Below are positions 13,061-14,434 of a stretch of DNA of 64,000 nt, one piece after another. The notes below the pieces were generated by a model. That model was not told the DNA's origin. It did no database searches and saw only the letters and a list, made by a program, of their open reading frames with translations. How positions within the stretch are numbered: the first letter of the stretch is position 1; each line of letters starts with the position of its first letter. Origin of the DNA: Parachlamydiales bacterium. Its GTDB lineage: Bacteria > Chlamydiota > Chlamydiia > Chlamydiales > JAJFMK01. The position numbers and the translations under genes are program-made. The stretch lies in NCBI GenBank assembly GCA_963765145.1, contig CAVXVG010000028.1:70595-134594 (forward strand), written 5' to 3'.

Positions 13061-14434
13061 TCAACGCCATTGCTTTATCCAAGCATCAAATTCTGAATCG
13101 AGGAGGCGGTATTGGACCAAATGTCCTTTGTGTAATGAGGTGAGATCCCTTTCTACAATCTCCACATACGAGGCTTTGTCGCTTAATGGAATATGTTCTT
13201 CCGCATCGCGCTTAATAAGGGCAATCGCTTCTTTTTTATTCAGACAACCCCGCACAACATTGACGATTATCTCGTTAATTAACTTAGAATAGCGGAGGCG
13301 GAGACGATCAGGCATCCCTACAGCTTGCTGTGTGGCAGAATAGCGCATACATGACTGTTCATAAGCCCAAATAAACACATCTCTCAACAATGCAATTTCA
13401 TTGAGCTCGTAAACAGCTAAAATAGCCTCCTTATACGCATCTTCCGGCACTTTGATAAATGAAAGCGGGCTTAAATTTTCTCTAATGAGTGGAATGTTAA
13501 CCGAAAGCCTCGACACACGCTTATTGACATCGATAAACGGTTGCAAGTAGGGCAAATGAACCATAACAAAAAAAGCTTGCTCAAACGGCTCTTTAATTGA
13601 TGCCGCCTTTGTTAAAATCTCATCAAAACATTCTTCTATTAACTGTGGAACCGATGGTGGCGTGTAAACTGATTGACCTATTCCAACAGCCAAACTTCTT
13701 AGTTGTCCTTCTAATGCCTTATCTCCAAGCAAATCTCGAGAAAGCAACGCATGCAAGCTTAGAATTGTTCGACGGTCAAAACCGATCTGGTCTATCGACT
13801 CAACTAAAAACTCTATCGCCTCCTTGTGATTGAGGATCATTCTGGCCTCTAAAAAACTCTTTTCATCGGCTTCTTCCCCAAATTCAATTAATCGTTCAGT
13901 TTCAAGTAATGAATAGGTATTTCCTTCCAAACGGCTTGAATTCCAAGAAAGATCAATCAAGAGACGGTGCAGAATTTGCTTAGCATAGGTTCCCGCTGGG
14001 CGTTTTCCGTCAGGCACTTTGCCAATTTCCCGAAGGTATTCTCGATTTGCTTCTGTTAAATAATAGCTATTGTTTGGCCTATATTCTTCCAAAAATGAGC
14101 GTTTGTAACCGACACGCTGCCCTCTTTCATTAACAGGCCTTTTCAGTTTTTCTTGGGTCACTTTTGCCTCAGCAGAAAAAGTGAAAGGCTTCATTCTGAG
14201 TACAATTTCTGGATTAATTTCAGGCGATGTCACCCGATATCTTCTGGCGCGTGCTTGCCCCTCAGCAATAACCGTCCCATTCTTGATGAGCATGACAAGA
14301 CGTCTTTGAACTACCCTTTCACTTAATCCACCATCAAAGGACGTAAGGATATCATCGATAGAAGCCCCTGCCGGAAAACGGCTTAGGACAGACACAAGTG
14401 CATCTAGCTCGCTTGAACTTGTAGGTTTAACCAT
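13061..14434 (-). CDS. Fic-family protein with N-terminal wHTH, Fic_N inhibitory motif and a degenerate active site
   Basis: SSRLEGN matches (S/T)xxxE(G/N). The core reads HLPYLQPFIDVNKRVSRL where HxFx(D/E)GNGRxxR is expected (His->Gln, GNG->VNK). The ATG at 14434 has an upstream GGGAG. Confidence 0.75.
   Translation of the reverse strand: MVKPTSSSELDALVSVLSRFPAGASIDDILTSFDGGLSERVVQRRLVMLIKNGTVIAEGQARARRYRVTSPEINPEIVLRMKPFTFSAEAKVTQEKLKRPVNERGQRVGYKRSFLEEYRPNNSYYLTEANREYLREIGKVPDGKRPAGTYAKQILHRLLIDLSWNSSRLEGNTYSLLETERLIEFGEEADEKSFLEARMILNHKEAIEFLVESIDQIGFDRRTILSLHALLSRDLLGDKALEGQLRSLAVGIGQSVYTPPSVPQLIEECFDEILTKAASIKEPFEQAFFVMVHLPYLQPFIDVNKRVSRLSVNIPLIRENLSPLSFIKVPEDAYKEAILAVYELNEIALLRDVFIWAYEQSCMRYSATQQAVGMPDRLRLRYSKLINEIIVNVVRGCLNKKEAIALIKRDAEEHIPLSDKASYVEIVERDLTSLHKGHLVQYRLLDSEFDAWIKQWR

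Follow-up and report, generated by a model that had tools for sequence, protein, structure and literature searches.

A widespread family of histidine-less, winged-helix Fic-like proteins with a conserved candidate operator before their own genes

Introduction

CccR of Yersinia pseudotuberculosis joins a Fic domain to a helix-turn-helix (HTH) domain, represses its own promoter through palindromes, and is an active AMPylating toxin (PMC9755527). Here we describe a gene with a related layout, Fic(Q), in a 64,000-nucleotide (nt) stretch of a Parachlamydiales genome (contig CAVXVG010000028.1; this whole stretch is called the window below). Like CccR, the Fic(Q) protein combines in one chain a class II Fic domain, with its inhibitory S..EG helix, and an HTH, and its promoter carries palindromic sites that the protein itself is predicted to bind. 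The domain order is reversed: the HTH of CccR is C-terminal, whereas Fic(Q) has an N-terminal winged helix-turn-helix (wHTH). CccR also carries the canonical motif H192PFGNGNGRTVR, AMPylates FtsZ and is secreted by a type VI secretion system (T6SS), whereas in Fic(Q) the catalytic His is Gln, GNG is VNK, the operator has multiple sites (at least five half-sites) and there is no secretion context. With no His, and no T6SS genes conserved beside the family, Fic(Q) does not qualify as a His-dependent AMPylating T6SS toxin of the CccR kind. A Foldseek search matched 7xux, probably CccR, at E=2.4e-3. By analogy, CccR is the closest functional precedent, and since it both self-represses and AMPylates, self-repression does not imply a pseudo-enzyme (PMC9755527).

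Other described proteins resemble parts of Fic(Q). FICD/HYPE (PDB 4u04, 6i7g, 5jj6) shares the inhibitory helix (TxxxEGN, corresponding to SSRLEGN in Fic(Q)), the flap and the post-motif helices, but has the catalytic His363, an intact GNG and a tetratricopeptide-repeat N-terminus in place of a wHTH, and catalyzes AMPylation and deAMPylation of BiP. Doc of phage P1 resembles Fic(Q) in having Lys in place of the second Gly (NKR) and a residue other than Gly (Ala or Val) in place of the first (motif from PMC4454073). Its essential His is retained, however, the final Arg and the beta-hairpin are missing, and the protein is a single domain of ~125 amino acids (aa) that the antitoxin Phd neutralizes and co-regulates. 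Fic(Q) falls outside the Doc subfamily: the His is absent, the final Arg is present, and the protein has 457 aa with a flap. The family profile matched none of the Doc structures, and we found no Phd-like or conserved small upstream neighbor among the flanking open reading frames (ORFs). As proposed here for Fic(Q), AbiEi (cited as ref. 40 of PMC9755527) and Phd/Doc use an N-terminal wHTH on inverted repeats in their own promoters, with negative autoregulation of a potentially harmful product, in mobile accessory genes; these are two-gene systems with a separate toxin, whereas Fic(Q) is all in one chain.

The motif itself has been noted before. Khater & Mohanty (2015) grouped 45 bacterial sequences with Qx[F/Y]x[D/E][G/V]NKR as 'Doc clade D2', described them as 'usually single-domain', gave no function, and remarked that the Q clade may not be catalytically dead (PMC4454073). 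The Fic(Q) sequence QPFIDVNKR fits this consensus. The two sets share the motif definition, the His-to-Gln change and restriction to bacteria; they differ in that we find at least 1238 clusters with a three-part architecture (wHTH, FICD-like core and helical extension) and a conserved candidate operator. In a literature search for the motif and for His-less Fic regulators, this in-silico note was the only hit, and the searchable literature gave no function for the family.

Results

Fic(Q) proteins share an altered but strongly conserved Fic motif

We aligned the window protein with characterized Fic proteins. The nearest solved proteins are class II Fic AMPylases of the FICD/HYPE type (E about 1e-9 by sequence and about 1e-11 by family profile). 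The segment QPFIDVNKRVSR aligns with the FICD motif HPF(T/I)DGNGR(T)(A/S)R, and SSRLEGN aligns with the FICD inhibitory helix TVAIEGN. Because both segments fall on their FICD counterparts, the two motif observations of the initial annotation, an intact inhibitory motif and the loss of the catalytic His and GNG, prove exact. Within the motif, His is replaced by Gln, the first Gly by Val and the second Gly by Lys, while F, D, N, R and R are retained. The protein departs from HxFx(D/E)GNGRxxR, with its His and Gly-Asn-Gly anion hole, as found in catalytically competent Fic AMPylases, and with the His and both Gly residues exchanged it is unlikely to carry out canonical AMPylation. The Lys of NKR is Doc-like, yet the fold and the closest solved relatives are those of FICD-type class II Fic proteins.

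Fic(Q) scores 36.9 bits against the Pfam Fic model PF02661 (E=6.9e-9, cut-off 24) over residues 219-314, which places it in the Fic/Fido superfamily; no NCBIfam model matched it. The protein consists of a winged helix (residues 7-68), a FICD-like class II Fic core (~150-350) and a remainder that forms a helical C-terminal extension. An AlphaFold2 model built from 59 family members (predicted local distance difference test, pLDDT, 76.6) shows the winged helix, the Fic core with a beta-hairpin at residues 250-258, and the helical extension. The top Foldseek match of the model is FICD (E=2.5e-5, probability 1.00, template-modeling (TM) score to target about 0.55). Residues 144-178 (window about 13901-14005) have a pLDDT of 36-47 and are the least confident part of the model despite the strongest family conservation.

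We next asked how general these changes are. A word-index search returned at least 8000 homologs; the best 120, examined further, are about 53% identical to Fic(Q) over the full length, and 118 of them carry both QPFxDVNKRVSR and SSRLEG. We also searched 1.84 billion cluster representatives (clusters at 50% identity) exhaustively with a profile; 1238 clusters matched at E<=1e-30, and 3211 at the looser limit of E<=1e-10. None of the 150 best representatives has His at the first motif position, and the His/Gly/Gly replacement is therefore a fixed, selected state of the family rather than decay in the window genome. Among 126 long representatives, the inhibitory-helix residues S166 (125) and E170 (121) are conserved, which gives one chain a class II (S/T)xxxE(G/N) motif N-terminal to the Fic motif, as are Q298 (122), F300 (125) and R309 (125); N304 (121), R306 (114), D302 (113) and K305 (110) follow. 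The pattern QxFx[D/E]xNKRxxR fits 104 of the 125 representatives in which the motif could be located. The stretch RLLIDLSWNSSRLEGNTYSLLETERL is nearly invariant at about 50% overall identity, with about 20 consecutive invariant residues around the inhibitory helix.

Judged from these counts, Q..VNKR..R is an alternative motif under strict conservation in a huge family that spans many phyla. Its retention across at least 1238 clusters shows that the loss is not particular to the window gene. The window copy, which retains 157 of the 173 columns with at least 90% conservation, is an ordinary family member. One or more of D, N, K and R are missing in about 17% of representatives, as in QPFEHLNNNVAR and QPFHHGSLVTSR; these still have the Q, the F, the last Arg, the inhibitory-helix motif and full length. 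The label of pseudo-enzyme given to the protein at first probably holds as far as canonical AMPylation is concerned; the conserved pocket argues for some retained ligand-binding or catalytic role.

Copies of the family lie on 31 plasmids, where they are annotated solely as 'Fic family protein'. A tblastn search of phage genomes found no family copy, only distant Fic cores. PADLOC reported PDC-S04 (52 bits) and SoFic (48 bits), both over the Fic core only (residues 150-338) and short of a full-length match to a defense family. We rejected placement in a known defense or phage family, as the PADLOC and PHROGs matches cover the generic Fic core only. In one close relative, on a contig of 87,126 nt, Fic(Q) appears in two pieces, P0012 (258 aa) and P0276 (199 aa), which sum to 457 aa; this indicates a frameshift, a nonsense mutation or an assembly error.

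The N-terminal domain is a winged helix

The mechanically called ORF (13061..14470, minus strand) begins with GTG; we used the ATG at 14434 instead, the start common to the homologs. In the start-site alignment the window protein begins MVKP..., against a homolog consensus of MPKxIP. Sequence-profile comparison of the N-terminal domain with the PDB gave marginal matches only (3lmm, Roquin and BlaI, E 0.026 to 0.83), and a fold search was therefore needed for confirmation of the wHTH. We modeled the N-terminal 74 residues alone (pLDDT 80) and compared the model with known folds by Foldseek. It matched the DNA-binding winged helices of the ArsR/SmtB, CzrA, Fur, HxlR and PadR repressors with TM scores of 0.65-0.77 and a root-mean-square deviation of about 2 A. 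The domain comprises helices at residues 7-18, 26-32 and 39-52 and strands at 55-58 and 65-68, at a pLDDT of about 80; the helix at 39-52 (SERVVQRRLVMLIK) is the predicted recognition helix. The winged-helix-like segment suspected at the outset is thus a real winged-helix domain in the models, and it is this appended domain, not a repurposed Fic fold as first proposed, to which we assign DNA binding.

A candidate multi-site operator precedes the window gene

As first described, the gene sits directly behind a palindrome array: seven half-site copies lie upstream, the last one next to the ribosome-binding site (RBS). We counted matches to the half-site GTATCCCGACA with at most one mismatch, and found eight in the 64-kb window, seven of them in the array, against an expectation of 0.40; none of 100 shuffles reached eight. 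The eighth, at 12732-12742, is within chance expectation, and we rejected it as an operator site. Across the three repeat units of the array, the half-sites show 0 mismatches in 44 comparisons (22 identical positions) and the spacers 31 in 80 (Fisher p=1.3e-7). That the half-sites stayed identical while the spacers diverged argues for selection on the half-sites and not for recent duplication. Relatives whose protein is 96% identical have two units, not three. Compared with the family, the window array consists of the canonical proximal sites (-59, -35 and -16) plus two extra, private 62-nt copies. A promoter scan of the window found no -35 element with at least 4/6 matches beside the TATAAT hexamer, and no consensus promoter was called.

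The candidate operator is a family-wide feature

We examined 80 loci from contigs of one genome per species, which include Pseudomonadota, Chlamydiota, Verrucomicrobiota, Bacteroidota, Nitrospirota, Planctomycetota, Deinococcota and Acidobacteriota, plus the loci of the closest relatives. About 80 homologous loci carry 3-6 half-sites in the last 130 nt ahead of the ATG. Within 150 nt upstream of the start codon, 47 of 82 loci repeat some 8-mer three times or more (exact matches, both strands counted); 0/80 downstream and 0/82 intragenic control segments do so. In those 47 loci, the locus-specific 8-mer reaches 23.4 copies per kb upstream versus 0.07 per kb in the other 352 kb. Both the positions of the half-sites and their alternating orientation are kept in 71 loci, at about -92(+), -78(-), -58(+), -38(-) and -20(+). 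The half-sites themselves vary by lineage, with ATCGCGCCACA, ATCGCGACA, ATTGCGACA, TAGCGACA, ATTACGACA, ATCGCGCAA, TATGCGCAA and the GTACATTA type; ATCCCGACA is used in the window and in one Bacteroidota locus.

The presence of multiple copies per locus (some of them direct), a related core across phyla, and travel with the gene point to a conserved protein that recognizes the element, and away from RNA stems or a dispersed repeat. An iteron or plasmid Rep reading was rejected: the loci are mostly chromosomal, there is no Rep fold, and the sites lie at fixed distances from the ATG. The comparison strongly suggests that the Fic(Q) protein binds the sites upstream of its gene, and autoregulation of the gene by its own product is well supported by these sequence patterns. 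The proposal that the palindromes are the operator of the gene's own protein has gained in this way, from equivalent arrays at conserved promoter positions across phyla and from half-sites that track the recognition helix.

Half-site classes track the predicted recognition helix

To compare protein and operator, we sorted an alignment of residues 20-70 by operator class. Proteins with RTLQRRL in the recognition helix pair with the GCGCCACA and GCGACA classes, those with RTLQYRL (often with a Trp in the wing) with (A/T)TGCGCAA, and those with RNVQHRL with the AT-rich GTACATTA type, TGTxGTACATTAG. Residue 39 is Arg in most members; among 84 loci, Glu39 occurs only in the window clade, in the Bacteroidota locus L075 and in L078. 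The window clade and L075 are the two users of TCCCGACA, in which the Arg-to-Glu change at 39 is paired with a G-to-C change in the half-site. Contacts of Arg with G and of Glu with C are common, and would predict the direction of this pairing. L078, which belongs to the QYR class, has Glu39 with TTGCGCATA-type sites, and E39 alone therefore does not fix the half-site.

We then picked four further loci solely by the sequence of the helix. The QYR protein has ATTGCGCAA twice within the 85 nt available, and all three QHR proteins have GTACATTA-type sites. Pairs of proteins of the same operator class are more similar in the wHTH by 1.7 points after control for Fic identity (permutation p=0.0005), an effect that is small and may be phylogenetic. 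The operator classes are also clades, so that co-inheritance contributes to the pattern of helix and half-site.

A second set of half-sites lies just beyond the array

Just distal to the CCCGACA array is a triad of half-sites of the GCGCCA class (Table 1), the commonest operator class of the family, laid out as in the operator of the chlamydial homolog L023. The triad is retained in the 96% relatives, and the first CCCGACA half-site stands in place of its canonical proximal site. From its sequence and position, the triad is probably a fossil or paralog-bound operator. The arrangement looks like operator turnover, in which an older GCGCCA-type operator was left behind when the E39 protein and new, duplicating sites took over; alternatively, the triad could serve a paralog encoded elsewhere. 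Two further GCGCCA-like sites at 14728-14755 were rejected as operator sites, since they lie inside a coding remnant of the second Fic gene (GKGRATFY).

Genomic context

We clustered flanking ORFs all against all and took a Pfam census of 95 neighbors, and found no conserved partner; the neighbors in the census are mostly housekeeping genes. The only recurrent neighbor is hsdR (type I restriction), with Fic(Q) directly upstream in 7-9 of 84 loci (about 10%). Its start lies -44 to +36 nt from the Fic(Q) stop in L010, L017, L022, L027, L037, L074 and L080, and Fic(Q) may be co-transcribed with hsdR or control it. HsdS lies upstream, and in L080 a YgjP-like peptidase lies downstream.

Beyond its own promoter we found no target, in that neither the 64-kb window nor the 352 kb of flanks from 47 loci holds further full sites. 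As the only recognizable target is the own promoter, the other domain must have a further role, and 'regulator' is not the whole function. Of the regulator role first proposed for the protein, control of its own promoter is supported, while a conserved target besides that promoter is missing. More generally, what the initial annotation had seen in the sequence was confirmed, and its interpretation was borne out in part: the winged helix is real and the palindromes behave as an operator, whereas the repurposed Fic fold did not hold.

In the window, Fic(Q) is flanked by tRNA-His and by two U-box effector-like genes. The latter diverge from the array and are candidates for eukaryote-like E3-ligase effectors; the U-box domain was detected in the ORF nearer to the array (Pfam E=8.4e-6). 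Such effectors are typical of amoeba-associated chlamydiae. Farther along, 19142-19951 (+) encodes a SUKH/SMI1_KNR4 family protein (Pfam E=3.4e-6). Proteins of this family are often immunity proteins for polymorphic toxins.

A long, near-perfect hairpin at 12587-12696, with 51-nt arms that are 92% complementary and an 8-nt loop, lies in the gap that separates tRNA-His from the Fic(Q) 3' end. Rfam returned only sub-threshold, generic miRNA-hairpin matches to it. The segment looks like an insertion, because in close relatives no more than about 190 nt separate Fic(Q) from BacA/UppP. The 96% relatives (L004 1930-2985) have an intact 351-aa copy of a second Fic gene, which is canonical (HPFQDGNGRLSR) with a C-terminal wHTH; fragments of this gene are scattered around Fic(Q) in the window (Table 1). 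Judging by these fragments, the locus is a decaying, rearranging Fic gene cluster.

Table 1. Features at and around the Fic(Q) locus, in window coordinates
Feature	Position	Strand	Description or basis
Fic(Q) gene	13061..14434	-	457 aa: wHTH, linker, class II Fic-like core, helical C-terminal extension
Family-specific replacement of HxFx(D/E)GNGRxxR, QPFIDVNKRVSR, residues 298-309	13508..13543	-	Alignment, family counts
Class II inhibitory-helix motif SSRLEGN, residues 166-172 (S166...E170 G171)	13919..13939	-	Inside the family's most conserved stretch
N-terminal winged-helix coding region, residues 7-68	14231..14416	-	AlphaFold2 models, Foldseek
Shine-Dalgarno-like AGAGGGAG	14436..14443	-	Read from sequence; precedes the ATG, directly after the proximal half-site
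Proximal half-site GAATCCCGACA	14444..14454	-	About -16 from the ATG, counterpart of the family -20 site; abuts the RBS
Three tandem 62-nt units, one dyad each (AGTATCCCGACA-N17-TGTCGGGATACT)	14457..14642	.	Repeat analysis
Proximal dyad GTATCCCGACA-N17-TGTCGGGATAC	14459..14497	.	Family positions about -59 and -35; sequence, positional comparison
Perfect TATAAT hexamer, candidate -10	14481..14486	-	Abuts the -59 half-site; sequence
GCGCCA-class triad TGGCGCAAT-N8-ATTGCGCCG(GTATAAG)-N15-TGGCGCGAT	14637..14686	.	Just distal to the CCCGACA array
Second-Fic fragment, residues 96-130 and 309-351	12824-13040	-	91-94% identity; directly downstream of Fic(Q)
Second-Fic fragment, diverged C-terminal piece	14710-14793	-	71% identity; upstream of the array
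Second-Fic fragment, residues 195-299	17390-17707	-	91% identity
ORF divergent from the array, 368 aa	14902-16008	+	N-terminal half like that of the next ORF, by eye
ORF divergent from the array, 387 aa	16088-17251	+	N-terminal half like that of the preceding ORF, by eye

Discussion

We propose that Fic(Q) is an orphan, horizontally spread, self-repressing wHTH-Fic module, a reading whose chances we judge to be evenly balanced. In its first and strongest step, drawn from the comparison of loci, the winged helix would bind 11-nt half-sites (GTATCCCGACA in the window) before its own gene; with a dyad at the TATAAT hexamer and a further half-site by the RBS, several dimers would occupy promoter and leader and keep expression low. 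In the second step, to which we give moderate confidence, the exchange of the general-base His for Gln and of the Gly-Asn-Gly anion hole for Val-Asn-Lys would preclude both AMPylation of the canonical kind and phosphorylation of the Doc type; the Fic-like domain would instead be a ligand- or partner-binding module whose dosage has to be tightly limited. The set that is kept comprises the presumed phosphate/Mg ligands D302, N304, K305, R306 and R309, a Glu170-Arg309 latch and a predicted target-docking beta-hairpin; such a domain could be a sensor or a stoichiometric effector, and would not be a simple loss-of-function relic. The third step is weak: Fic(Q) might be a self-contained accessory, addiction or defense-type gene and not a regulator of host pathways, because a conserved partner is missing, homologs about 50% identical are found in many phyla, and the gene adjoins hsdR in about 10% of loci.

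Several observations weigh against this proposal. The case for DNA binding comes from co-occurrence and co-variation, both of which shared ancestry explains in part, and a column-wise mutual-information scan was dominated by variable columns and isolated no clean specificity residue. A scan for the sigma-70 consensus across the loci found no consistent -35/-10 pair relative to the sites; with no promoter consistently placed, repression rather than activation is an assumption. The low pLDDT of the inhibitory-helix region leaves the pocket geometry unsupported by the model. The apparent split of Fic(Q) in a close relative would make the gene dispensable. Finally, D, N, K and R are strictly conserved in about 83% of representatives, which fits a real enzyme as well as a sensor, and the members that lack them remain full length, at least two of them with operators. 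The persistence of these members argues for a core function that can do without the pocket, and for the same reason we slightly favor a non-catalytic, ligand- or partner-binding Fic-like domain over an unconventional enzyme.

Such an enzyme is nevertheless the alternative that survives best, and we regard it as possible, if doubtful. Fic(Q) would then be an active Fic enzyme or toxin, using Doc-like inverted-nucleotide chemistry or another base, in a single-gene addiction or anti-phage module, and toxicity would be the reason for both the multi-site self-repression and the retained inhibitory Glu. In its favor, about 83-96% of representatives retain D302, N304, K305, R306 and R309, the inhibitory helix and the flap are conserved as well, and the Lys in place of the second Gly is the mark of Doc (PMC4454073). 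Fic(Q) is an orphan gene that has spread widely between lineages, onto 31 plasmids and beside hsdR in 7-9 of 84 loci; CccR joins self-repression to toxin activity (PMC9755527), and the remark of Khater and Mohanty on the Q clade points the same way (PMC4454073). Against this, the general-base His, essential in Doc and in Fic AMPylases (PMC4454073, PMC9755527), is absent from every member seen, and in about 17% of the full-length representatives D, N, K or R is missing too. The PADLOC and PHROGs matches also stop at the generic Fic core, no phage copy was found, and the neighbors are mostly housekeeping genes.

It is unlikely that Fic(Q) is a pure transcription factor, in which a dead Fic fold serves as a dimerization scaffold and the regulon extends beyond its own gene, perhaps to the divergent U-box genes. 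In favor of such a factor, no family feature is more general than the wHTH and the operators, neither the His nor either Gly has been kept, and some members without the whole phosphate-binding set keep their operators. The array does lie in the divergent intergenic region next to the first U-box ORF, but its end is 260 nt from that ORF, which has a promoter-like site of its own at 14856-14884. A wider regulon is also hard to reconcile with the absence of further full sites in the window and the flanks and of any conserved neighbor, and the near-invariant 20 residues around the inhibitory helix, with the pocket, exceed what a scaffold needs.

We consider it very improbable that the inverted repeats act independently of Fic(Q), as RNA or DNA hairpins (an attenuator, an mRNA stabilizer or an element like repetitive extragenic palindromes or miniature inverted-repeat transposable elements) or as sites for another host factor: each unit could form a stem of 11-13 bp, the B half-site could pair with the A half-site upstream or with that downstream by the RBS, T-rich tracts follow the stems and copy number differs among close relatives, but the half-site occurs 3-8 times per locus, including same-orientation copies that are unable to pair (those of L075 are almost all direct), is alike across phyla (xCG(C/x)(C)ACA core) where stems would drift, is tied to this gene family in unrelated genomes, where it tracks the recognition helix, and is absent elsewhere in the window, as a dispersed repeat would not be.

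What is new here is the self-repressing Fic-HTH type in a His-less, conserved and widespread form, together with a family-wide operator architecture and its specificity classes. One tentative and rather doubtful extension of the proposed module is that this clade turned the AMPylase site into a non-catalytic sensor of a nucleotide or phospho-ligand, or into a site of His-free chemistry, and coupled it to a winged helix whose operator specificity can be rapidly re-programmed, as R39E paired with G-to-C and the putative fossil operator of the older class at 14637-14686 would exemplify; the result would be a new kind of one-component switch or of single-gene addiction or defense module derived from a toxin.

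The family comprises at least 1200 clusters in many phyla and on plasmids, without the catalytic His and yet with the pocket under strong selection. Its operator provides an experimental handle, with defined candidate sites, predicted specificity-switch residues and natural variants, and makes the family a compact system in which to study the co-evolution of a DNA-binding domain and its operator. Should the Fic-like domain turn out to be a sensor or an enzyme of a new kind, the Fido fold would have a wider functional range, and thousands of 'Fic family protein' annotations that imply AMPylation would need refining.

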